Below, piece by piece: positions 1,885-38,908 of a stretch of DNA of 41,377 nt. Within the stretch, counting starts at the first letter, position 1, and each line of letters starts with the position of its first letter. The DNA comes from Candidatus Moraniibacteriota bacterium (GTDB lineage: Bacteria > Patescibacteriota > Minisyncoccia > Moranbacterales > UBA1568). Below the pieces are notes generated by a model. That model searched no databases. It was not told the origin of the DNA and was given only the letters and a program-made list of their open reading frames with translations. Where the stretch lies: the NCBI GenBank assembly GCA_030648835.1, contig JAUSGT010000002.1, forward strand, positions 266,081 to 307,457, read 5' to 3'. The translations under genes and the position numbers were made by a program.

Positions 1885-4353
1885 CTATTCCTTTTTATCT
1901 ATTTTGAAAGAAAGGAGCGCGTTGGAAGTCGTGACAAGAATTTCACCGCTTGTTTCGTTGACGGTGATAGTTTTCGTGGTAGCCAGTTGTTCGGAAAAGT
2001 ATTGCGTGAGAAGTGTGCCATCTTGGTTCCAGACGAGGACACGTTTGTTTGTCGCGTCGAGAGCGTAAACATTGGCCAATCCAGGATGGGTGAAGAGAGC
2101 GGTTACGGAAAGAGCGTTATGTGGAGTCTCGAGATTCTTTGCAAGATGTCCGCGAGAAAAAGCTTGGACGGATGTGTTGTCCGGTGTCAGGAAAATAGTA
2201 TCGCTGACAGCCATTTTGGGGGAGTTTTTAAATACGATGTTGTCTTTTATCCAGGGGCTACCTTGGCCAAAACCGCCCTCGGCACGAGGGAAGCGATAGA
2301 TTTGATTGGTAGTGGCGTCCAGGACATAGAGGTAGGTGAGATAGGCGCCAATGTCTTTGACGACAGCCCCCGTGGGGAGGGTGAGAGTATTTTTGACAAA
2401 CGTTCGACTGATAGGGCTCCAGGCGAAGAGCTCATCGCTCGAGGCATAGATGAAAATGAGACTCAAGTGATCCATTGTGGCAGCCAGTCGCGCGGAACCG
2501 CTTCCCGGCAACGTGTATTGCTTCTTGTCGTTCAGACTGATAATACTCTTCTCAGTGATGAGGTAGGTAACATTATCGAGAACGACGGAAGCAACGAGGG
2601 GATTTTTTTGAGTAGTAAATACCGTCGGTGATGCGAGGAGGTGGGCATTTTTTTCGGTATTGGGAGGGAATACCGGTGTCGCGGGTTGTTGTTTTGGCGC
2701 TTCCGCTACCGGGATGGAATTATTTGAAGACGGGCGTGTCAAGAACCAGATACCGGTAACGAGAAGGACAATGCCGGTGATGCCCCCTATGAGAAGAATT
2801 TGTCGTCTTTGTGGCGATAGGTTTTTTAAGAGGAAAGATACGCGTCTAAAGAGAGCCTGTGTCACCAGGATCCCCCGTTTCCAAAGTAAAGAGAGAAAAT
2901 CAAAACTTTGCCGGGAAATTTTCCGAATGAAAGAAAATATCGTATCGGTGGCATGTATGAAATTTTGAGGAGGAAATTTTTCTGGCGGAACGAATGGCCT
3001 CGGAACGCCATTTTTTCGGTAAAAAGCGTTCAGTTTTTCTTTCATAAAAAGCGGAATATCCGTGTCCGGGAGCGTTTCGGCGGGGAGTGGCGCCTCTGTC
3101 TTTCTTTCTGCCGGGACTGACTCGGATTGCGTCAAAAGTTTGGGAGCCTCTGGTCTCTCATGGAAAATGGGAGTTTCCTCTTTTGTCTGTTGAATTGGCG
3201 TTTCTCGCGGGAATGGCGAAAATTTTCGAAAAGATTTTTTTTGCCACTGTTTGCGCAGAAAGCGAACGGTTTTGCGGGTAGCGGTGCCACCTGCTCTTAC
3301 CAATTCGGCGAAAAAGAGAGAGCCGGATTTTTTCCCTTTACGCAGGAGCTTTCTTTGAGAGGCAAGAAACGAACTCAATCCGTGGAGCATGTTCTGAAGC
3401 GAAAGCTTGATACGCTCGAGACTCTGACTCGTTTCTGTTTTTCCAAGCGTGTCTCCTTGAACATAGATGTGGCCTGTTTTGGAATCGACATACTCTTCCG
3501 GAGCGGACAATCCCCCCTGATTTTCTTTTTGGGGAGAGTCGGTCTTTGAGACTTTCGTTTTCGAGGTAAAGGTTTCTTGACTGAAGACATTTTGGGTAGT
3601 TTCTGAAGATTCTTCTTCCTGTTTTTGTGGTGGTGGCAGGGGCTTGCCTTCTTGGAAATCGATAACGATGGTACCGGCCATATCAAGTTCATTGATGAGT
3701 ACGGTGCGTAAAAATTGTTCGAAGTGGTCTCCATCCATCCGTAAAGCGTTTTTTTTGAGATCTTCTACGGGGAGAAGCTCCAGGAGCTCCGGTGAGGTAA
3801 AAATGATTTTGTCCTGAGGCATGAGGTGTCCGCTCGAGACCTCGACAAATGTTTTGATGGGGTGAGTGTGGGATTCTTCGGAAGCCAAACCGAGGCTTAT
3901 CTCTGTGAGATTGTCATTGCGCAGTAAAAGAATCTCCGCAGAACCTGTGACGGAAAAGTGAAGATTGTTTTTTTCCACTATGCCGAGAGCGCCGTGATAT
4001 TTTCCCAACCAGGCGATATTACCGTCTTTCACAAGTTCGGCCAATGCAAGGTTGACTCTGTGGAGAGCCGCCTCGAAACTTTCGATAGCGTTGCGTCGCG
4101 GATTATTGAAGTATTCTTTTTTGGCGACGGAGGCAAGGAAATTGACGATATACGCCGAGTCTTCGCTCCGCTCGGCAATCTCAAACACGCCTATCAGGGT
4201 GCCGAGCTGGCTTTTGGTGACATTTTCGCCACTGTAGGTGAACACCTTGATGAAAGGCTCGATAGAACGTCCATTTGCCACGAGAATCTCCGCTACGGTT
4301 TTCTCGAGTGGAATAAGTGTCTTGATTTTATCCTGGCGTTTTTTCTCCAACAT
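1885..4353 (-). CDS. large bitopic membrane protein (PP2C-like N-terminal fold, low-complexity linker, TM helix, beta-propeller-like C-terminus)
   Basis: Long ORF, ATG at 4353. TM segment ILLIGGITGIVLLVTGIWFL. Repeated YVLD/YALD blades at the C-terminus. The PP2C-like fold is an inference. Confidence 0.65.
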   Translation of the reverse strand: MLEKKRQDKIKTLIPLEKTVAEILVANGRSIEPFIKVFTYSGENVTKSQLGTLIGVFEIAERSEDSAYIVNFLASVAKKEYFNNPRRNAIESFEAALHRVNLALAELVKDGNIAWLGKYHGALGIVEKNNLHFSVTGSAEILLLRNDNLTEISLGLASEESHTHPIKTFVEVSSGHLMPQDKIIFTSPELLELLPVEDLKKNALRMDGDHFEQFLRTVLINELDMAGTIVIDFQEGKPLPPPQKQEEESSETTQNVFSQETFTSKTKVSKTDSPQKENQGGLSAPEEYVDSKTGHIYVQGDTLGKTETSQSLERIKLSLQNMLHGLSSFLASQRKLLRKGKKSGSLFFAELVRAGGTATRKTVRFLRKQWQKKSFRKFSPFPRETPIQQTKEETPIFHERPEAPKLLTQSESVPAERKTEAPLPAETLPDTDIPLFMKEKLNAFYRKNGVPRPFVPPEKFPPQNFIHATDTIFSFIRKISRQSFDFLSLLWKRGILVTQALFRRVSFLLKNLSPQRRQILLIGGITGIVLLVTGIWFLTRPSSNNSIPVAEAPKQQPATPVFPPNTEKNAHLLASPTVFTTQKNPLVASVVLDNVTYLITEKSIISLNDKKQYTLPGSGSARLAATMDHLSLIFIYASSDELFAWSPISRTFVKNTLTLPTGAVVKDIGAYLTYLYVLDATTNQIYRFPRAEGGFGQGSPWIKDNIVFKNSPKMAVSDTIFLTPDNTSVQAFSRGHLAKNLETPHNALSVTALFTHPGLANVYALDATNKRVLVWNQDGTLLTQYFSEQLATTKTITVNETSGEILVTTSNALLSFKIDKKE

Positions 4354-4519
4354 ACATTTCCAGTATACCACAAAAAAGCTCTTGGGAGAGAGCTTTTTTT
4401 GGCTTTCCGTGAGAGGAGAGTGTCACCAAAAGCCTTTTTGACTTTTTTCACCCTTTTTCGTATACTGCGGGAGGAAAGTATCTCATTTTTGTCTATTCTT
4501 GTAACGCCTGAAAACCCCT

Positions 4520-5125
4520 ATGTCGCTCGTTCTCTTTGATGCGCTGTTTGGATCGAAAGCTCGTGCCCGCCTTATTCGTTTTTTTCTTCTCAACCCGGGG
4601 GCAGAATTCAAAGCCAACGAAGTTTCCGAAAAGACGCTTATTTCAAAGAGAGAAACATCTCGCGAACTCTCCCGCTTGCTCAAAATGAAGATGATCATTT
4701 TACGTACCCGCAAAGGGCGCCGGCATTTTATTGTCAACGAAAGTTTTCCTTTTTACACCGAATTGAAGAGTCTCGTCTCAAAGTTGAATATCCATGCCCA
4801 ATCGCAGGTATTTCGAAAATTGAAAATAGTGGGCGAGGTAAAATTGATTCTCATCAGCGGACTTTTTCTCAATTATCCCAAGAGCAAAGTAGACATGATT
4901 CTTGTGGTGAACAATGTCAATCGAGCGAAACTTCGGCATGCCATAGCTCATCTGGAAGCGGAAGTCGGCAAAGAAATCCGTTTTGTGCTCATGAATAGCG
5001 AGGAGTTGCACTATCGGTTGAATATGCTTGATCGTTTTTTCATTGAATTCCTCGAGGCGCCCTATGAAGAGGCAACCAACAAAATTCCCGAACTGAAACG
5101 TTTTATCGCCGGCCTGAAGAAGTAG
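4520..5125 (+). CDS. winged-helix protein with degenerate nucleotidyltransferase-like C-terminal domain
   Basis: LFGSKARARLIRFF...RELSRL wHTH pattern; ISG...VDMILV resembles a minimal NTase fold. Confidence 0.65.
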   Translation: MSLVLFDALFGSKARARLIRFFLLNPGAEFKANEVSEKTLISKRETSRELSRLLKMKMIILRTRKGRRHFIVNESFPFYTELKSLVSKLNIHAQSQVFRKLKIVGEVKLILISGLFLNYPKSKVDMILVVNNVNRAKLRHAIAHLEAEVGKEIRFVLMNSEELHYRLNMLDRFFIEFLEAPYEEATNKIPELKRFIAGLKK

Positions 5126-7820: not shown

Positions 7821-8281
7821 TTCTTTTTTCCGAGCGCAAGGCGTTTCTTGGCAAGCTTGCGGTGGGACTCACAGTAGCTTTTATTTTCAGTAGTATTCTT
7901 TGGAAGTTGGTACCTTCTTTCAAATATGGTGCTATCCCGGCGTCTCTGGAGCTCCGCGGAGACCGTTTTACGCTGGAAGTTGCGGTGACAGAAAAGGAGC
8001 GGGAAAAAGGTTTAGGTGGCAGAGAGAGTCTTTGTACCTCATGCGCGATGTTGTTCGTATTTGAAAAACCCGGGAGATACGCATTTTGGATGAAGGATAT
8101 GCGTTTCCCCATCGACATCGTTTGGCTTTTGAAAGACAGGGTGGTTTTCGTCGCAGGGGAGGTCAGCCCTGATTTTTCCGGTCTTCTCGATCCGGTAGTT
8201 GCCGCCGATCAGGTGGTTGAGCTCAATGCGGGTGTGGCCAAGAATATAAACGTGGGGGAGAAAATACGATTTTTCAAATAG
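7817..8281 (+). CDS. DUF192 domain protein
   Basis: REKGL...MLFVF...FWMKDMRFPIDIVW...VVELNAG. Confidence 0.88.
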   Translation: MILFSERKAFLGKLAVGLTVAFIFSSILWKLVPSFKYGAIPASLELRGDRFTLEVAVTEKEREKGLGGRESLCTSCAMLFVFEKPGRYAFWMKDMRFPIDIVWLLKDRVVFVAGEVSPDFSGLLDPVVAADQVVELNAGVAKNINVGEKIRFFK

Positions 8282-9167: not shown

Positions 9168-9332
9168 GAATCAGGAATCGAGAATCAGGAATCAAGAGCA
9201 TCAGAAGATATTTTTTTGTATTTCATTTACTCGAAAATACAAATGAACACTTTTTTCAAATGCAATGGGGGAGAAGCTTTGATAATCTAATGAATTTTTA
9301 TTTATGATTCTCAATTCACAATTCTTGATTCA
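9168..9332. repeat. heptamer (GAATCAG-like) tandem repeats forming an imperfect inverted pair
   Basis: gaatcaggaatcgagaatcaggaatcaaga at about 9168 and tgattctcaattcacaattcttgattc at about 9305. Confidence 0.55.
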
Positions 9333-9377
9333 TAAAAAATAGTTCGCAATTATTTTTTATAGAATTGGTGGAGGGTT

Positions 9378-9492
9378 GACCCTGTCACCTATTTTTGCAG
9401 AAATGTGTGTAAGTTGGACGCGCAAGCCGCAAGGCGACTTCGTCTTACGATTTACAATGACAATTACTTTTACTTGAATAGGTGACGGGGTT
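9378..9492 (+). ncRNA. candidate structured RNA or inverted-repeat element
   Basis: 16-bp closing stem (9378-9393/9477-9492) with G-U pairs on the + strand; internal gtaag/cttac stem and a gcc-GCAA-ggc hairpin. Confidence 0.35.
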
Positions 9493-9510
9493 GACAAATA
9501 TTTTTTCTCC

Positions 9511-9539
9511 TTGGCATTTTACAAAAAAAAGAGTATACT
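9511..9539 (+). promoter_or_regulatory. sigma70 promoter upstream of the small basic peptide
   Basis: TTGGCA-17 bp-TATACT. Confidence 0.55.
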
Positions 9540-9694
9540 GAAAGTGTACAGGAAATTTTTTCTGTATCACGCACAAAGAAAACAAATATTTGTCGTGTGA
9601 AACAAAAAAAATAATCCGCTTCTCTTACTTTCTATTCCATAAACTTATGGAACATGAGAAAAATGAGAAGTAGGTGTAGAAGGAGGTGAATATT

Positions 9695-9775
9695 ATGGCA
9701 GCTAAGAAAAGAAAGGTGGCTAAGAGAAAGAAGGCAGCCCCGAAGAGAAAGAAAGCTACGAAGAAACGAAAGTAG
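9695..9775 (+). CDS. 26-aa Lys/Arg-rich peptide MAAKKRKVAKRKKAAPKRKKATKKRK
   Basis: AAGGAGGTGA SD at 9680-9689, 5 nt before the ATG. Terminator downstream. Not in the ORF track because of its size. Confidence 0.8.
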   Translation: MAAKKRKVAKRKKAAPKRKKATKKRK

Positions 9776-9802
9776 TTTTGCTTTCTTCGGTTCTTTTAGT
9801 TC

Positions 9803-9844
9803 AATAAAACAAAAAATCCCCGTAAATCGGGGTTTTTTGTTTAT
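9803..9844 (+). terminator. intrinsic (bidirectional-looking) terminator
   Basis: aaaaaatccccg-taaat-cggggtttttt hairpin. Confidence 0.75.
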
Positions 9845-9985
9845 CCAGCACCTTCTAGAACATCTCATGGTCTTGCTCGCCTAGACGTCGAGGCTGGCTA
9901 CGGGGATGAATGGAAATATAAATCCGTCCCACAGGGTTTAATACCCTGTGGTGAAGGTGCTGGATTTATGGACAATTCCTCGTTG

Positions 9986-11071: not shown

Positions 11072-12154
11072 TTATTGTCCTTGTTTTTCCAATTTGCGGT
11101 GAATGTCTTCTTCTTCAAGTGCGGCAATGATCGGTTCGAGGGAGCCGCCCAGGATTTGCAGGATATTGCTCCAGGACATCTTGATTCGGTGGTCAGTGAT
11201 ACGATCTTGGGGATAATTGTAGGTGCGGATTTTCTCACTGCGGTCACCGGTACCGATCTGGCTACGGCGGGCATCACCTTGTTCTTTGGCGCGTTTTTCT
11301 TCTCCCAACTGGAAGAGGCGTGAACGGAGCACCTTCAGGGCTTTCTCTTTGTTTTTGATCTGAGACTTTTCGTCTTGGCAGCTGACGACGAGACCGCTCG
11401 GCATATGTGTGATACGGACCGCGCTGTAGGTGGTGTTGACGGATTGCCCGCCGGGGCCGGAAGAGCAGAAAGTGTCGATACGCAAATCAGTCGGATTGAT
11501 AGTCACTTCCACATCTTCGACTTGTGGTAAGACGGCTACAGTGGCGGTAGAGGTGTGAATGCGACCGGATTTTTCGGTCTCCGGAACACGTTGGACACGA
11601 TGGACACCGGATTCATATTTCATTTTTTGGTAGACAGGCAATGGACTCCTGCCGCGGTTCATTTCAAAAACTGCTTCTTTGAAACCGCCGACTTCCGTCT
11701 GGTTCGAATGAAGCATGACGATGTGCCAACCTTGTTTTTCGGCGTAGTGCGAGTACATGCGGAATAACTCCGTAGCAAAGAGACTGGATTCATCGCCTCC
11801 GGCACCACCGCGGATCTCGACGATGACATCTTTCACGTCGGAAGGATCTTTGGGCAAGAGAAGCTGTTTGAGTTTCTCTTCAAGTTGGGTTTTTTCCGAA
11901 GCCAAAGCAAGATTTTCCTCCATTGCCATATTTTTCAATTCCCCGCTCTCTTCGTTTTGGGTCAGTTCGGCGTTGTCGCGCATGCTTTTTTCGACAGCCT
12001 TCAACCGCTCGATGTATTCCATAGTGGAATCAAGCTCATTTTTTCGTTTGCCCAGGGTGGCTAATTTTTTGGAATCGCGCGCGGTTTCGGGAAGGCTCAA
12101 GAGCGCCGTGATTTCTTGGTGTTCGCGTTCGATTTCTTCGAGAAGATTTTGCAT
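11072..12154 (-). CDS. prfA: peptide chain release factor 1
   Basis: GGQ motif (GPGGQSVN), [10 protein letters not shown] (PxT), RTYNYPQ; start MQNLL. Confidence 0.97.
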
Positions 12155-12302
12155 AGCAGGTACATTCAAAGGCTTACAGTTAAAGGATCCTTGCGTACAG
12201 TATATCACTGTAAAACAAAAATCCCGGTCAAAGTGACGGGATTGCGGATTCTTTGCAGAAAGGGAACTCTCAAAAGGATCAAAGAAAACGCTTTGAACAA
12301 AG

Positions 12303-15528: not shown

Positions 15529-15601
15529 GCCATCTTAGCTCAGTTGGTAGAGCAACGGTTTTGTAAACCGTGGGTCGTCGGTTCGAGTCCGACAGATGGC
15601 T
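15529..15601 (+). tRNA. tRNA-Thr(TGT)
   Basis: Cloverleaf: gccatct/agatggc acceptor, acggt-tTGTaa anticodon arm, GTTCGAGTC T arm. Confidence 0.96.
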
Positions 15602-15661
15602 CAAGTTTGTACTTTGATAAGTTATATAGTATAATACAAGTGACTATACGCCACTAGTATT

Positions 15662-16270
15662 ATGCCACGTAAAAAAATCACTTCTGGAGAAGAGCGTCTC
15701 GTAAGAGATCTTTATTTGAAAGACTTTACTGGACAGGAAGTTGCTACACAACTCAAGGTTTCTCTGAAACAAGTATACGATTCGTTACGTCGCCAAAATA
15801 TCCCTCGGAAAAGTCTACTTGAGCAAAACAGGTTACGGTTTCAAAAAAAGCCTCTCTCTTTTGTGTTTAGTGAAAAATTGTCATCAAAAGATAGAGAGTT
15901 GCTTGTAGCTGGGCTTATGCTCTATTATGGTGATGGGGCAAAGACAGGGAATACTGTTGACTTTGCCAACTCCGATCCAATGCTTCTTAAATTATTTCTC
16001 AAGTTTCTGAAAAATATTTGCGGTATTGATAATGAGAAGCTGCGGTTTTATCTATACTGCTTCTCTGATCAAAATAGTAATTCACTTATTCGTTATTGGT
16101 GCTCTCATTTGAGCGTTAAGCCGGGGCAATTCACAAAGCCCTATGTCCGCTTGACTCTCAATAAGGGTAAACGAACAATGACAAACGGAGTATTACATAT
16201 TCGTTATAGTGATAAGCGTTTGCTTGAAAAGATATTATTGCTCGGTCGTGAGTGGGCGAGTACTTTGTAA
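15662..16270 (+). CDS. free-standing HTH + LAGLIDADG-like endonuclease
   Basis: N-terminal HTH (GQEVATQLKVSLKQVYDSL), LAGLIDADG-like helix AGLMLYYGDG, FANSD..LLKLFLKFL; AT-richer than the flanks. Confidence 0.65.
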   Translation: MPRKKITSGEERLVRDLYLKDFTGQEVATQLKVSLKQVYDSLRRQNIPRKSLLEQNRLRFQKKPLSFVFSEKLSSKDRELLVAGLMLYYGDGAKTGNTVDFANSDPMLLKLFLKFLKNICGIDNEKLRFYLYCFSDQNSNSLIRYWCSHLSVKPGQFTKPYVRLTLNKGKRTMTNGVLHIRYSDKRLLEKILLLGREWASTL

Positions 16271-16274
16271 ATAT

Positions 16275-16558
16275 GGGTAGGTGGCGGAGTGGTCAATCGC
16301 AGCAGACTGTAAGATATTGCAGCTCTGAAAGGGGACTTTCAGATGAACTTTCTGGGATAACGGTGGAGGCTACGTTCTTATAAAAAAAGAATATGCGAAT
16401 ACCGTGGGAACCTCGATATCGTGTCGGGGAGCGCCGTAGAGACTAGATACCAGAGCACCTAGAACAGGTGAAGATATAGTCCATGCCGAAGAGAAATCCT
16501 CGGGTTATATGAAATCTGTCGCCTTCGGGCTTCGGGGGTTCGAATCCCTCCCTACCCA
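16275..16558 (+). tRNA. tRNA-Tyr(GTA), exons 16275-16310 and 16512-16558
   Basis: Joined exons give gggtagg/cctaccc acceptor, gcaga-ctGTAaa-tctgt anticodon arm, long variable arm and GGTTCGAATCC. Confidence 0.93.
16311..16511 (+). mobile_element. group I intron (201 nt, ORF-less) in the tRNA-Tyr anticodon
   Basis: 5' exon ends in U, which pairs with G in P1 (ctgtaa/ttgcag). Terminal G. R element agagacta and S element aagatatagtcc form P7. Confidence 0.93.
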
Positions 16559-16734
16559 CTAAATCAATAAAACGGGTCTTTATGGTCCGTTTTATTTATT
16601 TTGGTAGAGTAAGGATAGGGATTCGAAGGGTATTCTAAAAAGCAAACTGCTTTGCTTTTTAGAAACCCAGGCTCTGGAGGAGTCGCGGAGCCTCCGGCGA
16701 AGCGATGGGGGAGGAGGAATCCCTCCCTACCCAC
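16542..16734. repeat. 18-bp direct repeat of the tRNA-Tyr 3' end with an internal inverted copy
   Basis: gaatccctccctacccac at 16542 and 16717; agggattcgaa at 16617-16627 is inverted. Confidence 0.8.
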
Positions 16735-16784
16735 ATAATCTAAAACAACTCCCAACATAGGAGTTGTTTTAGTTTCTATAGACG

Positions 16785-16856
16785 TAGCCCCAAGGGGAAT
16801 CGGACCCCTGTTACCAGGATGAGAACCTGGTGTCCTAACCATTAGACGATGGGGCC
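16785..16856 (-). tRNA. tRNA-Glu(CTC)
   Basis: ggcccca/tggggct acceptor, ccagg-ttCTCat-cctgg anticodon arm; T-loop reads TCCGATT. Confidence 0.9.
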
Positions 16857-16862
16857 CTTCAG

Positions 16863-16933
16863 CAGGGGCGGTAGGAATCGAACCTACACAAACGGTTTTG
16901 GAGACCGTTGTACTACCACTATACGACGCCCCC
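16863..16933 (-). tRNA. tRNA-Trp(CCA)
   Basis: acggt-ctCCAaa-accgt anticodon arm; GGTTCGATTCC. Confidence 0.95.
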
Positions 16934-16998
16934 ATCTATCTCTCTAGTATATAATATTGTATCAAGTAAACCAAAACCCGCCAGTTGGCGGGAAGGAT

Positions 16999-17160
16999 CT
17001 ACTTGCTCTCGGTATGGGTCGCGTTCTTCTTGCAGAAGCGACAGTATTTACTCAGCGCAAGCTTCTCTTTCACCTTTTTCTTGTTACGCTTCGTGTAATG
17101 TGTGATACGGCTACACAGAGAACATTTCAGTTTTACCATGGTATCTTTAATTTGTCCCAT
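16999..17160 (-). CDS. rpmG: 50S ribosomal protein L33
   Basis: Manual translation MGQIKDTMVKLKCSLCSRITHYTKRNKKKVKEKLALSKYCRFCKKNATHTESK; two CxxC; not in the ORF track. Confidence 0.93.
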   Translation of the reverse strand: MGQIKDTMVKLKCSLCSRITHYTKRNKKKVKEKLALSKYCRFCKKNATHTESK

Positions 17161-17265
17161 ATCATTTTCAATAATTCATCCGTTTAAAAAGCTTTTTTAC
17201 TCTACTGGAAAATATCCCGAACGTCAACCCTCCCCCATCAAAGCTTCGAATAGTCGGACATCCTG

Positions 17266-17338
<73 letters not shown>

Positions 17339-30974: not shown

Positions 30975-31282
30975 GGTTAAGCAATCTATGAGCCTCCAGG
31001 CTCGAGTTTGCTTTTGTTTCTTTTTGTTTTAATTAGGGTGAAGCTTCAAAAAGTCTTCGGGCTTTTTTGTTCGCTCTAAAAGTCATTTAACAATTGAGCC
31101 AAATAACAACAATAAAATAATCACAATTTTTTGTGGTTAGTCCTTGTTTTCTTTTTGTCTTCGGATGAAGGGAAAACAATTGTAACTTAGGTTACACGGA
31201 AGAATCTCTATTCGGTAGCAGTGATGCTACCAACTAAATTTAATCTTTTTGCCTTCGGGTAGACAGATTGAGTTTTCTTATT

Positions 31283-31322
<40 letters not shown>

Positions 31323-32263
31323 GATAAGGCATGCAAGTCGAGTGGGTTTAGACCCACGGCAAACGGGTTCGGATAACATAGGAATCTTCCCTAAAGTCGT
31401 GAATAATCCAGAGAAATTTGGAATAATGCGCGATATGCTCTACGGAGTAAAGATTTATCGCTTTAGGAGGAGCCTGTGTCCTATCAGCTAGTTGGTGAGG
31501 TAATAGCTCACCAAGGCTATGACGGGTAGGGGGTGTGAGAGCACGGCCCCCAACATTGGAACTGAGACACTGTCCAAACACCTACGGGTGGCTGCAGTCG
31601 AGAATATTCCACAATGGGCGAAAGCCTGATGGAGCGACGCCGCGTGCGGGATGAAGGTTTTCGAATTGTAAACCGCTTTTTTCAGGGAAGAACTACGGTG
31701 ACTGTACCTGAAGAATAAGAGGTTACTAACTCTGTGCCAGCAGTAGCGGTAATACAGAGACCTCAAGCGTTATCCGGATTTATTGGGCGTAAAGGGCAGG
31801 TAGGCGGATATGTTAGTCGGATGTTAAATCTCGGGGCTCAACCCCGAACAGGCATTCGAAACGGCATGTCTAGAGGATGTGAGAGATCAGTGGAATTTAT
31901 GGTGTAGTAGTGAAATGCGTTGATATCATAAAGAACACCCAAGGCGAAGGCAACTGATTGGCACATATCTGACGCTGAGCTGCGAAAGCGTGGGGAGCGA
32001 ATAGGATTAGATACCCTAGTAGTCCACGCCCTAAACGATGCATACTAGGTGCAGGGAGAATCGACCCTTTCTGTGCCGGAGCTAACGCGTTAAGTATGCC
32101 GCCTGGGAAGTACGAGCGCAAGCTTAAAACTCAAAGGAATAGACGGGGATCCGCACAAGTGGTGGAGCATGTGGTTTAATTCGACAGTAAGCGAGGCACC
32201 TCACCAAGGTTTGAAATCTAGCTGCAGAGCCCAGAAATGGGATGTCCTTCGAGGGTGCTAGAC

Positions 32264-32297
<34 letters not shown>

Positions 32298-32365
32298 AAG
32301 ATGTTCCGTTCAGTCGGGAAACGAGCGCAACCCCTGTGAAGTGTTATATATGTCACTTCAGACTG

Positions 32366-32496
32366 CCCTCTCATTTGCGCACGAAGCGCGCAAATGGAGT
32401 GAGTAGTTTGTAGATGGTAGTTGGTAGAGAATTTTTCTACTTACTATTCACTACGTACTACAAACTGTATTCGCGTTTCGCGAATAAGTGAGAGGG
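32366..32496 (+). other. about 130-nt hairpin expansion / IVS-like insertion in 16S helix 40
   Basis: Lies between gactgcc and ggaggaagg; closed by ccctctca/tgagaggg; three internal hairpins. Confidence 0.85.
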
Positions 32497-32723
32497 AGGA
32501 AGGCGGGGATGACGTCAAATCAGCATGGCCCTTTGACACCTTGGGCGACACACGTGCTACAATGGCCGGAATAAAGGGTCGCCAAATCGCAAGATGGAGC
32601 TAATCCCAAAAATTCGGTCTCAGTTCGGATTGAAGGCTGCAACTCGCCTTCATGAAGCTGGAATCACTAGTAATCGTTGATCAGCCACGCAACGGTGAAT
32701 GCGTTCTCGGATCTTGTACTCAC

Positions 32724-33676
32724 AATAAAAGCGCCGGGCAGTTTATCCCGCACTTTGTTCTCTTACAAAAGAGGATGGAGTCGGAATAAGTCTCGTTCTT
32801 GTTTCTTTGCGAAACAAAGTGCGGGATTTATCAATCTAAGGAGTTCAAATCTCCTCCTCCGTTTCCCAAACGGAGCGTAGTTGAAAGGTAGTCGCGTATC
32901 GCGAGGTACGCGGTGAAGGACCTGGAAACGAATGGTAGTCCAACTAAGAAAGAATCGTATCGACTTCTGAACCAAGGCGGTGAGCAGAAGGAAGATATAA
33001 TAGAGCGATTCGTTGGAATGTCAGGAACAGAATGATAGATAACCCCGGGAGATCTTGCGCTGTTTCAATGTCGTGTTACAATGATATTGAATAATGAAAC
33101 TTACGCAGCGTAAGAAGTCAGCTGAGCTATAGTAACTCTCGATTTATCGAGATGAAGGGCTCACTCAGATGCATATGGAAAAAATAACTCCAGATTACAT
33201 CGTTGGTCTTGTGGACGGAGAGGGAAGTTTCACAGTCTATGTGAAAAATCCTGATTCAGATAAGCAAGTCATACGACGAACAAAAGTAGAGCCACGGTTT
33301 TTTCTGAAACTTATCGAGAAAGATAAAAAAATTCTCGACGAACTCAAGAAATTCTTTGGGTGCGGGAACGTGTATTTTCAAAAAGATACTCGTCCCAATC
33401 ATCAAAATTGTTATCGTTATGAAGTAGCCAATAGAAAACATCTGGAAACCATTATTATTCCATTCTTCAAAAGTAATTCTTTGAGGTTACGTTCAAAGAA
33501 AAGTGACTTTGAAATGTTTTGCAGGATTTTCAAAATGATTATGAAGAATGATCATTTCAAAGATTCGGGATTGCGTAGGATATACGCTCTCAAGCAGACA
33601 ATGCATTAGAGCTCGTCGTGTGCGGGAAATCCGCAGGCACGATGGGAACATCAATTCGTAGTTTTACGAAGATAAT
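32724..33676 (+). mobile_element. group II intron at 16S C1399/C1400 (E. coli numbering) carrying a LAGLIDADG ORF
   Basis: Splits gtactcac|cgcccgtc. Domain V at 33612-33646, domain III agta...gaaggg motif, 3' terminal AT, EBS loop ggcggtgag complementary to the exon junction. Confidence 0.9.
33175..33609 (+). CDS. single-motif LAGLIDADG homing endonuclease (intron domain IV)
   Basis: YIVGLVDGEGSF, L..L..FFGCG.V, IIPFF...L...K..DF..F. Start at 33169 or 33175. Confidence 0.93.
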   Translation: MEKITPDYIVGLVDGEGSFTVYVKNPDSDKQVIRRTKVEPRFFLKLIEKDKKILDELKKFFGCGNVYFQKDTRPNHQNCYRYEVANRKHLETIIIPFFKSNSLRLRSKKSDFEMFCRIFKMIMKNDHFKDSGLRRIYALKQTMH

Positions 33677-33956
33677 CGCCCGTCACACCAAGAGAGCCGG
33701 CAATACCAGAAGGCCCCGGGTTAAATCGGGGACGACGGTAGGGTTGGTGATAAGGGTGAAGTCGTAACAAGGCATCCGTAGCGGAAGCTGTGGATGAATC
33801 ACCTCCTTTCTAGGGAGATAAAGGTGTAGAGATGATGATCTATGATCAGAATCACAACCATTATGGTCGTTCATTCGCTTACGTATAGTTTTCTAACGCT
33901 TCGGCGAAAGGAGATTTACCTGTCTATGGCAGGCGTAGTAATGAAACATAATAAAC

Positions 33957-34040
33957 TAGAGACTTTCCGTAAAAAGTTCGTCGTGGTGGAAACATCGTGG
34001 CGAACATAGGACTAACCGCAAAAGGTTTTGATTATTGTTT
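33957..34040 (+). other. 3' strands of the pre-16S processing stems
   Basis: aggactaaccgcaaaa...tgattat pairs with leader ataatca...ttttgtggttagtcct (about 31117-31144); tagagactttccgtaa pairs with leader cggaagaatctcta (about 31197-31210). Confidence 0.7.
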
Positions 34041-34169
34041 AAATGCAAATTATCTGATGGAGCGCTCTTCAATGAGCAATTCCTTGCGAAGGGAATTTCA
34101 TCAGGTAAGAATCAAGTACTTTACGCACAGTATTCCAAGATAAAGGAATTTCTTCGTTTACTGCTGTAA

Positions 34170-34206
34170 GACACGGAAACTCGTCGCAAGACGGGTTTTC
34201 TTGTTT
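34170..34206 (+). terminator. terminator hairpin, repeat A copy 1 (ends the 16S unit)
   Basis: gacacggaaactcgtc-GCAA-gacgggttttcttgttt. Confidence 0.85.
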
Positions 34207-34353
34207 TTAAGTTATCAGAACTAGCTTATATGGGCTAGTTTTTGCTTTATTCCAGGCGTTTGAAAAGTATTGACAAAAATGGAAAAATAACACAGACACT
34301 TTTTTAGATATATGCTATATTTTTGGTAAAGAAATAGATGTTGTTCTAGCCAT

Positions 34354-35505
34354 ATGAAAAAGACTAGGAATAACCGAGACCAAGACCTCATTGAGAGGAC
34401 TGCCAGTATATATCACTCTATTGCTCATGATTCGATGGACGGGTTTTTGATTTTAGATATGCATGGTCAGTTTCTGGATGTGAATGATGTGTATTGTCGC
34501 ATGATAGGATATAGTCGCGGGGAACTTTTGAAAATGAACTTGGTAGATGTCGAGGCAGCGGAAAAACCGCAGAATGTTGTCAAATTCATGAGACATATAA
34601 AGAGGCTAGGAAAAACCCGCGTCTTTACGCAACACCGAAAAAAGAATGGTACTATTGTGGAGGTTGAAATCAGTGTCAATTATACCAATTATCTAGGAGG
34701 ACTCGTATTTGCTACTTTACGCGATATTACCGGAATCAAAAAAACAGAAAACGACCAGTTTAGAAATCGAGCAGAGTCAAGAAAAAAAATGGAAGGAAAA
34801 CTAGCCGATTCATACAGACACTCTGAAAATCAGGATCAATCAAGAAAGGTAGTAGAGGGACAGCTAGCCGATTCATACAAACATTCTAAAGAAGAGGCAG
34901 AGTCAAGAAAGGTGATAGATGGTCAGCTGGCCGATTCATACAGACACTCTGAAAATCAGGATCAATCAAGAAAGATAGTAGAGGGACAGCTAGCTGATTC
35001 GTACAAATATTTGGGGACCATCAATAGAAAAATTACTCTTCTTCTGGACATAGAAAAACTCCCGAGGTCAAAAAGTCACCGCAAGGAAACCATAGACTAT
35101 ATTTTGAGTTTGGCTATGAGTATTGTGAATGCTCCTATGGGGTATCTCTATAGTTCGAAAGGGAGAGGGACGTTTAGTCTATTATCCTATAAAGGAGTAG
35201 AGGCGGGGCAAGAAGAAAAAATCAAAGTGATTACCTCCCGTAAGGTCGGACTTTTGAAACATCTGCTCCGAGAAAAAAGTCTTATTAGCGGGGATATAAA
35301 GCGTTACGAAGCGGAGCTTTTGGCATCAGACAATAAGCTGGAATATTTTGTTACTCTACCTCTCTCGAAAGGAACAGCTTTGGGAGGGTTTATTTTTTTG
35401 GGTTTTAATAAAAAACATACCGTAGCCACGCAAGATTTGGAATTTCTTGACGTTTTTGCCATGCATGCTTCCAAGGCCCTTATGGAAGCTGGTGTTTTGG
35501 AATAG
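34354..35505 (+). CDS. PAS - repeat coiled coil - GAF-like sensor protein with no output domain
   Basis: PAS (DG...LD..G....VN...CRMIGYS..EL; HRKKNG...VEIS; RDIT), four LADSY repeats, GAF-like end (LPL.....LGGFI......DLEFL..FA..A). Confidence 0.82.
   Translation: MKKTRNNRDQDLIERTASIYHSIAHDSMDGFLILDMHGQFLDVNDVYCRMIGYSRGELLKMNLVDVEAAEKPQNVVKFMRHIKRLGKTRVFTQHRKKNGTIVEVEISVNYTNYLGGLVFATLRDITGIKKTENDQFRNRAESRKKMEGKLADSYRHSENQDQSRKVVEGQLADSYKHSKEEAESRKVIDGQLADSYRHSENQDQSRKIVEGQLADSYKYLGTINRKITLLLDIEKLPRSKSHRKETIDYILSLAMSIVNAPMGYLYSSKGRGTFSLLSYKGVEAGQEEKIKVITSRKVGLLKHLLREKSLISGDIKRYEAELLASDNKLEYFVTLPLSKGTALGGFIFLGFNKKHTVATQDLEFLDVFAMHASKALMEAGVLE
34768..35006 (+). repeat. 63-nt (21-aa) intragenic tandem repeat, about 4 units
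   Basis: ctagccgattcatac-like motif at 34801, 34864, 34927 and 34990. Confidence 0.9.
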
Positions 35506-35563
35506 ACACACATATACCCAAGATAAAGCCTGCCCGCCTCACTACGCATAGTGTTGTGGGAGG

Positions 35564-35600
35564 GACACGGGAACTCGTCGCAAGACGGGTTTTCTTGTTT
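35564..35600 (+). repeat. repeat A copy 2
   Basis: 36/37 identical to copy 1. Confidence 0.92.
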
Positions 35601-35690
35601 TTCTAAGGCTATACTCTACTGTTTAGAGGGCGCCCAAACGGGTGTTTTGTGTATGCTATACTATAGCCATAATGTAACTAACATAAAACT

Positions 35691-36338
35691 ATGAAAAAGA
35701 ATATCTTTTTCCCGGTTGTTGGGCTCGCGGTTTTTTCTTTTTTGGCATTGCCTGTTTCCGCGCAGAAACCGGAAAGTGTAGGTACGCCAGCAGAAAAGTC
35801 ATTGCAGGCACAAACCGCACAGGCGAATCTGAATGCCAGTAAAGGTCAGGTGAATGCTCCTACGAATGATGCTACGGAGACCACTCAACCAACGACAGAA
35901 AAAAATGCCAAAGGTCAAACAACTGCCGAATCACATCGCAGTGTGGTGGCTACCTTTGTGCAAAGTCTCTTGGCGGTAGCTGACAGAGAAGGTGGCATTG
36001 GAGCGCAAGTGAAAGTAGTCGCAGAGCAACAAAATGATACTAAGGATAGGGCCGCTGACTTGATATATGCTGTTGAGAATAGAAATAAAATAAAAACATT
36101 TTTTATAGGTACAAGTTATAAAAATCTTGGAGAATTACGAAGCCAAATGGTTCAAACAAGAAATCAGATTGACCAACTTAGGAGGTTAGCGGCTAAAGCT
36201 GAGAACCCAGAGGATAAAGTAGCGCTTGAAACTCAGATTCAGTCTCTCGAACAAGAAGCACAGAAAATTGATACTTTCATCACCGATAATGAAAGCCAAT
36301 TCAGTTTGTTTGGCTGGGCAGTAAAACTCTTCCAGTAA
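35691..36338 (+). CDS. secreted coiled-coil protein
   Basis: Signal peptide MKK...PVSA, low-complexity linker, helical C-terminus ending FSLFGW. Confidence 0.75.
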   Translation: MKKNIFFPVVGLAVFSFLALPVSAQKPESVGTPAEKSLQAQTAQANLNASKGQVNAPTNDATETTQPTTEKNAKGQTTAESHRSVVATFVQSLLAVADREGGIGAQVKVVAEQQNDTKDRAADLIYAVENRNKIKTFFIGTSYKNLGELRSQMVQTRNQIDQLRRLAAKAENPEDKVALETQIQSLEQEAQKIDTFITDNESQFSLFGWAVKLFQ

Positions 36339-36347
36339 AGAGTGGGG

Positions 36348-36384
36348 GACACGGGGACTCGTCGCAAGACGGGTTTTCTTGTTT
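36348..36384 (+). repeat. repeat A copy 3
   Basis: 35/37 identical to copy 1. Confidence 0.92.
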
Positions 36385-36390
36385 GATGTT

Positions 36391-36434
36391 CGCTTTTCGG
36401 AAAGGATGACCACAACCGGCATCCTTTTTGATTT
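36391..36434 (+). repeat. repeat B copy 1 (terminator-like hairpin)
   Basis: cgcttttcggaaaggatgaccacaaccggcatcctttttgattt. Confidence 0.85.
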
Positions 36435-36528
36435 TCTCCCCATTGACTTTGTTCAAAGAAGACGTATAATATCTTCTTGTACCTTTTTATTTGATGTATT
36501 CACCGCACGCTCACTTGGGGGAATAATC

Positions 36529-36909
36529 ATGCCGAAAGAAAAATGGAATCCCGAGAAATACCCACCAGCGTTGCTGGAGGCGGCGGCATTGCAATCGTTA
36601 TTGAATGCCATCGGCTATGATCTGCAGACAGAAATATTTTTGGGGATCGGTGATGAGTGTTTGTATGTCACTCTGCGGATTGCCGACCATGGGGATGTCC
36701 ATTTCCCTGTAGGCACCTTTGAACAATCGCCACAAGAAATATATGAACTGGCGGTGGAGGCGTTTCGCGATTGGAATACACTGACTACGAACTCCGAAAG
36801 AGAGAGCATCGTCAATGCTTCTCGGGCGAGGCATAATATGCCGAAAATCATCTTCGCGTTGATGTTGCTCGGACTTTGCGGGCCACGTTCGAAGCCGACG
36901 TTACACTAG
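36529..36909 (+). CDS. hypothetical protein
   Basis: TTGACT-16-TATAAT promoter at 36443-36470, GGGGGA RBS, ATG at 36529. Confidence 0.65.
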   Translation: MPKEKWNPEKYPPALLEAAALQSLLNAIGYDLQTEIFLGIGDECLYVTLRIADHGDVHFPVGTFEQSPQEIYELAVEAFRDWNTLTTNSERESIVNASRARHNMPKIIFALMLLGLCGPRSKPTLH

Positions 36910-36943
36910 CCCTCGACGTTATTGAAAAAACACAGGAGAACAA

Positions 36944-36987
36944 CGCTTTCTCGAAAAGGATGACCACACCGGCATCCTTTTTGATTT
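36944..36987 (+). repeat. repeat B copy 2
   Basis: cgctttctcgaaaaggatgaccacaccggcatcctttttgattt. Confidence 0.85.
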
Positions 36988-37009
36988 GTATACATTTTTA
37001 ACTTTTCAA

Positions 37010-37450
37010 CTATCGCTCGTGATCGACTTTGCCGTTGTTGATTATGCCTACGGCGCGTGAGAGATAACGGTACCGTATCTGTAGGGGATGCGTTTTGTTT
37101 TGTGGTGCGTACGCTGTTAGTAGAGCCACGATCGGGATAAGATCTCGACGGGCAGGTTCTCTTATTGGATGGTGCGGAGCGGCTGCAGGAGCAAGGTCTG
37201 TGATAGCATAGAGTGTTTTTATTGGGTAGTGGGCCTCAAAGGCATTCATTAAACTTACGAGTTCTTGAATTTTTTGTTCACACTCCTCAGGGCTTGGCTG
37301 GGTAATCTCTGGTTCATTGGCATATTTTACTAGCCATTCAGGTGCTTGTTCCGTATGCGCCGGACTAAGTTCAGCCACGTTGGTTCTGGCATGGGCTTTT
37401 GGCTCCTGCTCCGGTGTCGGGATGGGTTTGGGAAATTCGTTTTCGTTCAT
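37010..37450 (-). CDS. hypothetical protein
   Basis: ATG at 37450; C-terminal LSRAVGIINNGKVDH. Confidence 0.6.
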   Translation of the reverse strand: MNENEFPKPIPTPEQEPKAHARTNVAELSPAHTEQAPEWLVKYANEPEITQPSPEECEQKIQELVSLMNAFEAHYPIKTLYAITDLAPAAAPHHPIREPARRDLIPIVALLTAYAPQNKTHPLQIRYRYLSRAVGIINNGKVDHER

Positions 37451-37612
37451 ATGAATAAGTGTATCATTTACCACCAAATTGAACCACCGGGAAATCCAGT
37501 CCATAGGAAGGCTCTCCCTCAGGGCGATCGAGATCTCTTGTAATTCTGATGTACTTCAAATTTTTCCGAAAAGTGGTATAATAATGATGGAGTCTTGGTA
37601 AAAACAAAAAAT

Positions 37613-38044
37613 ATGTTTAACATAAAAAAAGGTACCGCCTTGATCGCGGTGGTGGTGTTGGTGAGCGTTTTCGTTTACTATCGCTACGCGGTAAAGATAC
37701 TGCAGGTGAACAAGGGTGAGAATACGACGCCGGTGACGGATATGCTTCCGGTCGGAGCGAAGAAAGTGAGTGCGGTCGTCAAATATATGGCGACTGAGGA
37801 CAAGGAGGACGAATTACGATTTGTCCTGACCGTCGACAAGAGCGGAATAATTACCGAGTTGGCTACCCTGGACGCCAAGACGAATGAAGTACCGGAAAAG
37901 AAAAAAGATTTCAACCGGCAGGTCTCGGTGATGATTGTCGGAAAGAAGTTGAGCGAGCTGACAGCTATCGATAATGTTGCCAAATCAACACTTACTACAA
38001 AAGCTTTCAATAGTGTGGTTGATCAGCTGAAAGCCCAATTGTAA
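37613..38044 (+). CDS. membrane-anchored FMN-binding-domain-like protein
   Basis: N-terminal TM helix, LTVD..G.IT, C-terminal IDNVAKSTLTTKAF resembling the flavinylation motif; directly upstream of apbE. Confidence 0.7.
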   Translation: MFNIKKGTALIAVVVLVSVFVYYRYAVKILQVNKGENTTPVTDMLPVGAKKVSAVVKYMATEDKEDELRFVLTVDKSGIITELATLDAKTNEVPEKKKDFNRQVSVMIVGKKLSELTAIDNVAKSTLTTKAFNSVVDQLKAQL

Positions 38045-38047
38045 GCG

Positions 38048-38908
38048 ATGGAAGAATTTACTTTTACCGGACTGGGGACGGAGTGGTCGCTTGCAGTCGA
38101 CGGTAAACAGCTTGAGGACCAGGTACGGAAAGACGTAGTTCAATATGTTCAGGATTTCGAAAACCGCTTCTCGCGGTTTTTGCCGTTATCAGAGGTGAAT
38201 GCTTTCCGCACATCACCAGCCGGCGATTATATTCTTTCTCAAGAATTTTCACTTTTGCTGGCTCGGGCGGACCGACTTAGAATTTTAACCAATAGTGCCT
38301 ATGATCCGGCGGTGGCCAGTATCTTGGAAGATGCCGGGTATGGTGCAAAGAGCGGTATGGAAAAAATCAAACAGCCTCACATTCCGAAGTGGGCTCTTGT
38401 TGGTAATAAGCTAACCATCGACAGTCCGATTGCGTTTGATCTCGGCGGTATTGGCAAGGGATACTGTATCGATCAGGTAGCCGATGTACTCAAACATTTC
38501 GGTTACGATTATTATCTGGTTGACGGTGGAGGAGATATGGCGGGAACTACGAAAGCGGATGGGAGCGCGTGGCGGGTAGCGGTCGAGTATCCGGGAAAAC
38601 CGGACACAGCCGCGAGCATTGTGCATCTGAAGCATCAGGGAATCGCTGTGTCCGATAGTTTCCGCCGCCGCTTCGGGAAGTGGCATCACCTGATTGATAT
38701 GCAGGAAAAAAAGCCGGTGGAAAAAGTCATCGGTTGTGCGGCGGTGGCGCAGGATGCTTGGGCAGCCGACTGTATGACCTCCGGACTTTTCTTCGCGCCG
38801 CCGGAGAATTATCCCGCATTGGCAGAGGAATTTGAGGCTACCTATATCGTTTTTCAGAGCGATGGGACGACCACAGTGAACTCCGATTGGCAGGGGGAAT
38901 TGTTATAA
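38048..38908 (+). CDS. apbE: FAD:protein FMN transferase
   Basis: SRF...SE, YDPAV, DLGGIGKGY..D, VDGGGD, W.VAV..P, HHLID, ADC..S. Confidence 0.92.
   Translation: MEEFTFTGLGTEWSLAVDGKQLEDQVRKDVVQYVQDFENRFSRFLPLSEVNAFRTSPAGDYILSQEFSLLLARADRLRILTNSAYDPAVASILEDAGYGAKSGMEKIKQPHIPKWALVGNKLTIDSPIAFDLGGIGKGYCIDQVADVLKHFGYDYYLVDGGGDMAGTTKADGSAWRVAVEYPGKPDTAASIVHLKHQGIAVSDSFRRRFGKWHHLIDMQEKKPVEKVIGCAAVAQDAWAADCMTSGLFFAPPENYPALAEEFEATYIVFQSDGTTTVNSDWQGELL

Follow-up and report, generated by a model that had tools for sequence, protein, structure and literature searches.

Behind the 16S rRNA gene of a very small groundwater bacterium (Candidatus Moraniibacteriota) lies a one-way array of mostly single genes, separated by copies of the terminator-like hairpin that closes the 16S transcription unit. 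The array is part of a stretch of 41,377 nucleotides (nt), referred to here as the window (C1:266081-307457 of the source assembly G000; 1,014,601 bases, 4 contigs, 99.84% complete), in which the hairpin, named T1, occurs three times. We propose, with a probability of about one half, that units consisting of a piece of 16S flank plus a gene accumulate at this site through recombination anchored in the 16S flank, and that recombination between T1 copies removes them again. Genomes of the same order are labelled G001 and so forth, and L-numbers designate extracted loci or contigs (L087 being a metagenome contig). All genomes compared are metagenome assemblies, one per species.

T1 is a 39-nt unit detected by a repeat finder at positions 34170-34208, 35564-35602 and 36348-36386 (100, 97 and 90% identity to copy 1; spacing 1394 and 784 nt). 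The three-copy hairpin with a GCAA loop that the original prediction had placed at 34170, 35564 and 36348 is therefore real. Folding predicts an identical 11-pair stem with this loop for all copies. Their 5' arms read GGAAAC, GGGAAC and GGGGAC in copies 1, 2 and 3, and because all copies fold into the same stem, the A-to-G changes convert A-U into G-U pairs, in agreement with the proposal that the two variable A/G positions keep their pairing. Copy 3 diverges additionally at the final two bases of the unit. In 56-nt windows placed on copies 1, 2 and 3 the folding energies are -23.7, -24.8 and -19.9 kcal/mol (z-scores -5.5, -4.9 and -3.0), and a terminator scan picks up each copy with 11 pairs, a 4-nt loop and a T-run. 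The copies are located 3-60 nt past a stop codon on the + strand or past the 16S trailer. With its stable stem-loop and T-run, on the coding strand and after a gene, T1 is terminator-like in structure and fits an intrinsic (Rho-independent) terminator. Rfam returned nothing at E <= 1 in 33800-37100.

The repeat is confined to this locus. Its 28-nt core occurs three times in the window at <=3 mismatches, with 0 occurrences expected from 100 dinucleotide-preserving shuffles, and the pattern count for the whole 1.01-Mb genome is likewise 3, all on the + strand and all in one 2.2-kb stretch; the reverse strand and a backwards control pattern both gave 0. A common dispersed terminator, which had been named as a finding that would speak against a cassette array, is thus not what we see, since 3/3 copies lie here. 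Among 21 local same-strand short repeat pairs of the genome, strong hairpins of terminator size are represented only by T1 (three pairs) and by a second family, T2 (one pair), so that terminator duplication is a property of the locus and not of the genome. A genome-wide habit of duplicating terminators is ruled out on the same grounds, both families being located here.

As had been proposed, each interval between T1 copies contains one gene in the orientation of the 16S gene (+ strand open reading frames, ORFs, at 34354-35505 and 35691-36338), and the motif ccaagataaag is common to the regions before copies 1 and 2 (34135 and 35518). The features of the locus are as follows (coordinates in the window, strand; aa, amino acids):

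31277..33812, +, 16S rRNA gene (Rfam RF00177, 1270 bits from 31277)
34008..34036, +, 3' arm of a long-range stem bracketing 16S (partner 31116-31144; inverted repeat I1, 29 nt, 86% complementary)
34135..34169, +, conserved 16S trailer before the hairpin (CCAAGATAAAG, then GAATTTCTTC...GTAA), kept in primary copies of relatives
34170..34208, +, T1 copy 1, primary terminator-like hairpin closing the 16S transcription unit (repeat, fold, terminator scan)
34217..34246, +, T1', second terminator-like hairpin directly after T1 (terminator scan; conserved in G024 and G020)
34354..35505, +, gene A, PAS + GAF protein of 383 aa (Pfam PAS_9 2.5e-10, GAF_2 1.8e-8)
35517..35563, +, partial trailer copy (CCCAAGATAAAG) plus 35-nt mini-hairpin insert H2 (35529-35563), read from the sequence
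35564..35602, +, T1 copy 2 (repeat, fold, terminator scan)
35691..36338, +, gene B, 215 aa, hydrophobic N-terminus (by eye a signal peptide), no family above the Pfam cut-off
36342..36386, +, T1 copy 3, with GGGGG alone before it, resembling the 3' half of the mini-hairpin (repeat, fold)
36394..36434, +, T2 copy 1, second repeated terminator-like hairpin directly behind T1 copy 3 (families D4 and D5; fold -17.7 kcal/mol)
36443..36470, +, promoter-like site before gene C (TTGACT, 16 nt, TATAAT; consensus scan 11/12, pattern match only)
36529..36909, +, gene C, 126-aa ORFan (no Pfam, NCBIfam, PHROG or PADLOC family)
36948..36987, +, T2 copy 2, between the convergent genes C and D (repeat, fold)
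37010..37504, -, gene D, 164 aa, no family (Pfam), homologue in the post-16S region of G061 (relatives search)
37595..38908, +, conserved right flank with a weak FMN_bind-like gene (37595-38044) and ApbE (38048-38908; Pfam)

The 16S unit has its conserved end in T1 copy 1, where similarity between species breaks off. The trailer was matched by DNA search in 23 of 50 genus genomes, and in 19 of these 23 the match ends at 34204-34209, at most 4 nt from the last base of T1; it continues past T1 in G024, G020, G001 and G064. Upstream, the 3' end motif of 16S (...gaatcacctcctttct) is read at about 33797-33812, and T1 copy 1 begins 130 nt beyond the I1 stem arm. Judging from its position, the I1 stem is probably the precursor-processing stem. 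T1' belongs to the type of hairpin with which the 16S flank terminates in those members of the genus that have short trailers (by-eye comparison with G013, G014 and G023).

The DNA behind T1 differs in content among relatives. In 25 oriented loci that were mapped, 16S and T1 are followed by 0 to about 10 mostly unrelated genes and then by the conserved FMN_bind-like gene, which comes after the variable region in most relatives; genes between T1 copies are all on the + strand. Genes A-D have no homologue in the matching loci of G025, G033 and G020, and the sites of G003 and G069 are nearly empty. In G069 a sequence that we call block D (TACCACG...GGTGGTTGACT...) directly follows T1 and marks the empty site, for which Rfam gave nothing except 16S. 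The filled counterparts are G009, where a 156-aa gene lies between the primary T1 and a second T1 that precedes block D, and G026, where two genes (204 and 525 aa) occupy the same position. Thus, the comparison of the post-16S locus that had been suggested as a check revealed different genes between constant repeats as well as an empty site, and the best explanation for this genus is that the DNA immediately following T1 is a hot spot of gene insertion. As a separate observation, the promoter-leader of block D (TTGACTTCC...GATACT...GGAAGTTCTTTGGTGG; L056 (G069), 1702-2900) recurs three times in G009 (L048) and is also present in G016, G018, G011 and G021; a small ORF of about 87 aa stands alone after the block D leader.

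The cargo of the arrays looks accessory (toxin, Bro-N, GNAT, Zeta-like kinase, ORFans). Proteins that could be named are the PAS-GAF protein, a PemK toxin, two Bro-N proteins, a GNAT, a Zeta-like kinase, an amino-acid kinase with PUA, a SecDF-head/transglutaminase-like protein and one IS30-like transposase (G019), and more than 12 others are without any family match; PADLOC gave no defence-system match for 10 proteins. Homologues of gene A are found behind 16S in G064, G071 and G016. Gene A itself contains three in-frame 63-nt tandem repeats between PAS and GAF (34771-35011, family D1, 75-88% alike). The sequence comparisons suggest that gene B originated outside the genus: its closest relatives (55-66% amino-acid identity) are in other families of the order, and the matches in nine of ten sampled same-genus genomes are weak (those listed 22-37% identical). 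In the gene B homologue of G145, likeness stops at the stop codon (by eye), and no T1 follows. Gene C has no counterpart in any of 150 other genomes of the order. It is bracketed by the two T2 copies (36394, 36948), and three T2-like copies surround unrelated genes in G061.

The same architecture recurs within the genus. Of about 30 genus genomes examined, 8 have two or more flank copies on one contig, and each of these genomes has a hairpin variant of its own: three copies in G000 and G033, four plus one variant in G019, two each in G016, G009, G026 and G071, and, in G005, a duplicated 112-nt spacer piece together with T1'. In addition, G021 and G036 have two flank copies each on separate contigs. 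Used as a pattern, the G000 hairpin matches 4 of 36 genus genomes, always behind 16S (twice in G033), and none of 24 genomes of other families. A second hairpin variant is present in 13 of 49 genus genomes (four times in G019; twice in G009, G016, G021, G026 and G036; once in seven others), its copies being one-stranded within each genome and clustered on one contig in G019, G009, G016 and G026. Some copies are altered: the third of G033 has a changed stem and loop and a full-length trailer, the fifth of G019 is a variant, and in G071 a complete trailer copy is joined to a hairpin that has decayed. No flank repeats are present in six genus genomes whose trailers are short and different. Outside the genome set, an exact-core scan of metagenome contigs returned six contigs, one of which, L087, has the end of a 16S gene and, within 3.7 kb, five copies. 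All T1 variants of the genus fold into a 10-11-pair stem followed by a T-run, and changes that preserve pairing are seen in G027 and G033 copy 2 (G-C to A-U) and in G070 (C-G to U-A). A single consensus structure for all variants failed, as they pair in shifted registers, and each was folded individually.

The downstream copies have a constant core in common (GACAC, hairpin, T-run) and a right edge that is sharp and coincides with the end of the T-run, and at least six distinct left ends were read, from about 10 nt to more than 200 nt before T1. The left end lies at about 10 nt in G000 copy 3 and G021a, at the CCCAAGATAAAG motif in G000 copy 2 and G019 copy 4, at the second trailer segment in G009 and G033 copy 3, and in spacer pieces flanking 16S in G005 and L087, while G033 copy 2 and G071 copy 2 comprise the whole trailer. 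This range, from about 10 nt up to the full trailer and 16S spacer pieces, speaks against hairpin-directed integration, one of the two routes that had been envisaged. A mini-hairpin (YYTRCCCGCC...GGGNGG) is found just before GACAC in nearly all downstream copies; most primary copies are without it, except those of G026 and G020. The insert H2 of copy 2 is a single occurrence in the G000 genome and is therefore ruled out as a dispersed element. Independently of the array, palindromes of about 20 nt (CCTGCCTRCCGGYAGGCAGG) are scattered in G000 (e.g. C1:58882, 105576, 150772, 202743, 477226), often inside longer repeats, and a palindrome of this type is inserted just after ...AAG in the 16S trailer of relatives (primaries of G020 and G026); the family has the appearance of a very small mobile palindrome.

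Several downstream copies go together with their following gene and, by sequence, look like former primary copies of other lineages. The combination of T1 and block D occupies the primary position in G069 and lies further downstream in G009 and G026. In G000 and G064 gene A comes after the primary T1, in G071 after a complete copy of the trailer; the two full-length trailer copies (G033 copy 2, G071 copy 2) precede genes that elsewhere directly follow the primary T1. L087 is a composite in this respect: positions 4376-4728 match the primary T1 plus first gene of G025 (77%, BLAST), positions 3262-3424 match the primary trailer of G020 (84%, with the same mini-palindrome at the same spot by eye), positions 2142-3259 match the T1' unit of G005 (82%), and a short-type flank (stem arm plus T1'-type hairpin) resembles those of G013, G014 and G023 (by eye). 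The PemK-toxin unit c19 lies after the primary T1 in G016, after a full trailer copy in G033 and last in the array of G019. Its gene-to-trailer junction is identical in the three genomes and the DNA behind the next T1 differs, from which it follows that exchange or loss at T1 also occurred. The DNA of c19 is 75-81% identical between genomes and the spacer 74-77%. Owing to this equal divergence c19 appears old rather than recently moved, and a recent transfer of the unit is ruled out.

Two further observations concern start modules. In L087 the segments 1119-1250 and 3338-3465 have trailer, T1, promoter, leader and the first five codons (MSFEM) in common and then continue into unrelated ORFs (BLASTP E 24), a pattern that would be expected if the start module had stayed in place and the gene bodies behind it had been exchanged. 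A promoter-plus-leader module of about 53 nt (TTGACA, 17 nt, GTATTAT, then TATATGTAAGTAnnGTAAACA) precedes unrelated genes in several post-16S loci, namely L042 (G064, oriented 1800-1853 and 2580-2632), L044, L009, L049 and L011, and also occurs at two or three places in G000 (C2:10703, C1:316123). A shared operator is one possible explanation, a portable expression module another.

Taking into account these data, we propose the following model. A unit would consist of a piece of the 16S 3' flank ending in T1, a promoter-like site and one or two genes on the 16S strand. DNA of a relative, carrying its own 16S flank and first gene, would pair via the highly conserved 16S gene and trailer, which offer a long stretch of cross-species homology whose end is marked by T1, and would be taken in by homologous recombination or by homology-facilitated illegitimate recombination. 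The far end of the incoming DNA would join illegitimately inside the resident flank, and the resident flank, shortened on its left side, would be pushed downstream together with its gene. The outcome would be one complete primary copy and partial downstream copies with a shared right edge and ragged left edges; both the raggedness and the resemblance of units to former primaries would follow from a joint that falls inside the resident flank. Units would be deleted or exchanged by recombination between T1 copies, which would also keep copies within a genome alike. Recombination at the repeats, the other route that had been envisaged, is plausible for such loss and shuffling. As far as can be judged from structure, each T1 would stop transcription of the preceding gene and shield the next unit. 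Of the earlier idea that genes are gained or lost as terminator-bounded cassettes, this leaves standing the local layout, the variable content, the empty site and the accessory cargo, whereas the hairpin-directed route is not supported. Stacking of 16S flanks fits better than a hairpin-specific recombinase because the copies travel with the following gene and match the primary flanks of other lineages. RecA, DprA and ComEC are encoded in the G000 genome, which is weak evidence because most control genomes also have them.

A number of observations weigh against this model. The mini-hairpin that precedes GACAC in nearly all downstream copies is not accounted for. The c19 unit looks old, yet its T1 is of the host-genome type in G016 and G033, so that a later exchange or gene conversion is needed. 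The junctions are tight: in G000 genes end 3-15 nt before the flank fragment, and the stop codon of G019 copy 3 appears inside the motif, with a similar situation in G021b; random joints would not predict this without strong selection. Compared with G025, L087 has T1 copy 5 plus about 1.4 kb inside the array and not at its front. Moreover, everything was read from metagenome assemblies, a single one for each species, and contigs of the source run break at a 31-nt exact repeat where no alternative joint was seen. Finally, homology-facilitated illegitimate recombination, as established in natural transformation of Acinetobacter and Streptococcus pneumoniae (pneumococcus), is similar in that there is one conserved anchor (here 16S plus trailer), an illegitimate far joint and capture of foreign genes beside the anchor; its usual product, however, is a deletion of recipient DNA, whereas here the anchor end is duplicated, and the process is deduced from sequence. 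We know of no demonstration of it in these bacteria.

The constant core and the sharp right edge of all downstream copies would also be expected if T1, perhaps together with the preceding mini-hairpin, were a true recombination site at which a recombinase encoded elsewhere inserts and excises circular units. One-way arrays with one or two genes per unit and cassette-typical cargo, the occurrence of the PemK unit at different ranks and with changing neighbours in three genomes, the internal insertion in L087, and a complete copy accompanied by partial direct repeats of an RNA-gene 3' end, as is generally known from integrase-made tRNA islands, are all compatible with this explanation, and the genome encodes two Xer-like tyrosine recombinases and three large serine recombinases. 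All five are located outside the window, which, as had been noted, is free of integrases (no match to PF00589 or to tyrosine or serine recombinases); the nearest recombinase match is about 48 kb away. The proteins of 10 array units and some adjacent genes contain no integrase or resolvase (Pfam and/or PHROGs), the IS30-like transposase of G019 being the one recombination enzyme among the units scanned. On the integron-integrase model TIGR02249 the tyrosine recombinases score 125.5 and 64.3 bits against a cut-off of 265. To our knowledge, large serine recombinases leave no long direct repeats. The attC consensus is an imperfect hairpin with RYYYAAC and GTTRRRY boxes and bulged bases. T1, read directly, has no attC boxes and consists of 11 uninterrupted pairs with no bulged bases; the 3' side of its stem (CTTGTTTTT) contains no GTT plus three purines, and its 5' side is without an AAC box. 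Although the array is one-way, mostly single-gene and variable in content like cassette arrays, its units are separated by terminator-like hairpins and have promoter-like sites of their own (e.g. 36443-36470; pattern match), unlike promoterless cassettes. Likewise, direct repeats of the RNA gene 3' end and an empty site in relatives agree with an island at an RNA gene, and an integrase gene was absent from the units scanned. The array fails the defining tests of integrons and of tRNA islands: neither the units nor their immediate neighbourhood contain an integrase, and attC boxes are absent. With neither IntI nor these boxes, the array is no integron; the absence of attC GTT/AAC boxes had already been noted, together with the integron-like layout. 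A hairpin-specific enzyme would, in addition, neither need nor predict long variable stretches of 16S flank far from the hairpin or units that resemble the primaries of other lineages. We therefore consider a true recombination site at T1 unlikely, and slightly more doubtful still that the 16S terminator hairpin is a working site at which a recombinase from elsewhere in the genome inserts and excises promoter-gene-terminator units.

Ragged left edges next to a sharp right edge at the end of hairpin and T-run could alternatively be products of replication, if the fork stalled at the hairpin and the nascent strand switched template, copied a gene, returned by microhomology and recopied the end of the trailer with T1. 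Confinement of terminator duplication to this locus and the similar behaviour of T2 in the same region are in line with such a process, which leaves the match of units to primary flanks of other lineages unexplained and does not explain why other strong hairpins of the genome are not duplicated; we regard it as improbable. To the same low degree we credit the view that the genes are old residents and that a single local duplication of the terminator, followed by gene conversion and by selection for strong insulation beside a very active rRNA promoter, occurred without any gene traffic. The divergence of the PemK unit, equal to that of the spacer as in vertical descent, the near-identity of copies within a genome combined with differences between genomes, and the pairing-preserving substitutions in G000 can be quoted in its favour; it is difficult to reconcile with a content that is almost wholly different among species, with the existence of an empty site, with a gene B whose nearest relatives are in other families and a gene C that is an ORFan, and with the flank types of several lineages in L087. 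An artefact in which the assembler joined different strains at the shared hairpin is very improbable, even though the exact repeat equals the assembler word length and contigs break there. The locus was found in one sequencing run (the probable source run) and in no RNA run. Its depth in the source run is even, at 31-41, across trailer, gene A, gene B and beyond, whereas three separate strains would each show a fraction of the trailer depth; gene A is found on single contigs that have T1 sequence at both of their ends; and the same layout is present in 8 assemblies of the genus, including G000, as well as in an unrelated metagenome contig. Even depth and recurrence in many assemblies thus argue against an artefact, the order of the units in G000 being that of the assembly alone. 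A weak joint of 34167 to 35526 in another groundwater run (side 23 nt, depth 4.35) was rejected as an excision product, because it fits a relative with the mini-hairpin in its primary trailer.

Compared with known systems, the locus would work most like tandem islands at tRNA genes while looking like an integron. Tandem tRNA/tmRNA islands likewise comprise a complete 3' end copy, partial downstream repeats with varying left edges, tandem units, accessory cargo and an empty site. Here, however, the target is the 16S trailer and terminator rather than a tRNA body, the units measure 0.55-3.7 kb and are free of integrase genes as far as scanned, and several of them look like former primary flanks of other lineages. 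With integrons and CALINs (clusters of attC sites lacking integron integrases) the array shares its one-way order of mostly single-gene units, the hairpin repeats, a fixed chromosomal site and a cargo of ORFans, toxin and acetyltransferase. It differs from them by the absence of an integron integrase, of R and L boxes and of bulged bases, by repeats that are near-identical within a genome, terminator-like on the coding strand and copied from the end of the neighbouring rRNA gene, and by promoter-like sites for each unit in place of one common promoter. Repetitive extragenic palindromes and bacterial interspersed mosaic elements (REP/BIME) are also short hairpin repeats after genes, but T1 is not dispersed, with three copies in one direction in one 2.2-kb stretch. 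In Campylobacter coli, units with cfr(C) are bracketed by pcp or by insertion sequences, and circles were shown by PCR (polymerase chain reaction; PMC10770853). In that system, same-direction repeats bracket a gene set and enable loop-out and re-insertion at a homologous copy without a dedicated integrase, as may be the case here; the repeats there are whole genes or insertion sequences of hundreds of bases, in contrast to the 39 to about 110 nt in our case, where no circle was seen in a run whose contigs break at the exact repeat. A full-text literature search, supplements not covered, found no description of terminator-bounded arrays behind rRNA genes. We regard the array as a variant of the insertion hot spots known at RNA genes.

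Several features in and around the window deserve mention in their own right. The 16S gene is interrupted twice, by an insertion of about 110 nt (about 32378-32487) and by an intervening sequence of about 950 nt (about 32724-33676) that contains an ORF for a LAGLIDADG endonuclease (33169-33609; LAGLIDADG_1, E 6.6e-18). In relatives without the intervening sequence 32488-32723 aligns straight on to 33677-33875; G025 and G033 have neither insertion at the corresponding positions, and the long one is apparently present in G020 as well. No group I intron was matched by Rfam in the window at gathering score. Downstream of 16S the G000 assembly has protein-coding genes and not a 23S gene, and RF02541 found no 23S rRNA gene in the assembly despite its completeness rating of 99.84%; the 23S gene may lie in an assembly gap or be heavily interrupted. 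Four tRNA genes are located at 15529-17338 of the window, one on the + strand and three on the - strand. Elsewhere in G000, on stretches outside the window, there are a weak Y1-transposase-like ORF and two reverse transcriptases, and no rve or TnpB-type match was obtained in the genome. On contig C2 (23.9 kb) a 37-nt hairpin repeat (10623, 11761) brackets one gene with the TATATGTAAGTAnnGTAAACA promoter module, beside the Y1-transposase-like ORF (12054-12275), a reverse transcriptase (9248-9961) and repeat pairs at 7967 and 8871; the segment 7967-12275 may represent a retroelement and a second small cassette-like unit. The segment C1:241725-243521, also outside the window, contains a 362-aa ORF for a reverse transcriptase and, next to it, two pairs of 22-nt repeats at a distance of 462 nt, and has the layout of a diversity-generating retroelement. 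At C1:380269-387538 a Xer-like recombinase gene is followed by 137-nt direct repeats (381960, 383375) and a third partial copy (387444), and this may be an integrated element.

Gene uptake in very small host-dependent bacteria is poorly known, and the locus described here suggests a simple, testable route. The variable gene stack behind 16S, bounded by exact repeats, helps to explain contig breaks at this position, and it calls for caution against treating post-16S genes as stable markers. If a recombinase acted on the hairpin, the arrays would constitute a novel type of cassette system in which terminators copied from an rRNA gene serve as the cassette sites, and T1 as a recombination site would illustrate, in living cells, the long-standing idea that such sites can derive from terminators. 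If, on the other hand, 16S-flank-anchored stacking is true, the part of the genome that is most conserved, namely 16S with its flank, would serve different species as a common landing strip, every arrival would be marked by a scar that can be dated, in the form of a cut-down flank copy, and the arrays would be a record of gene gains.

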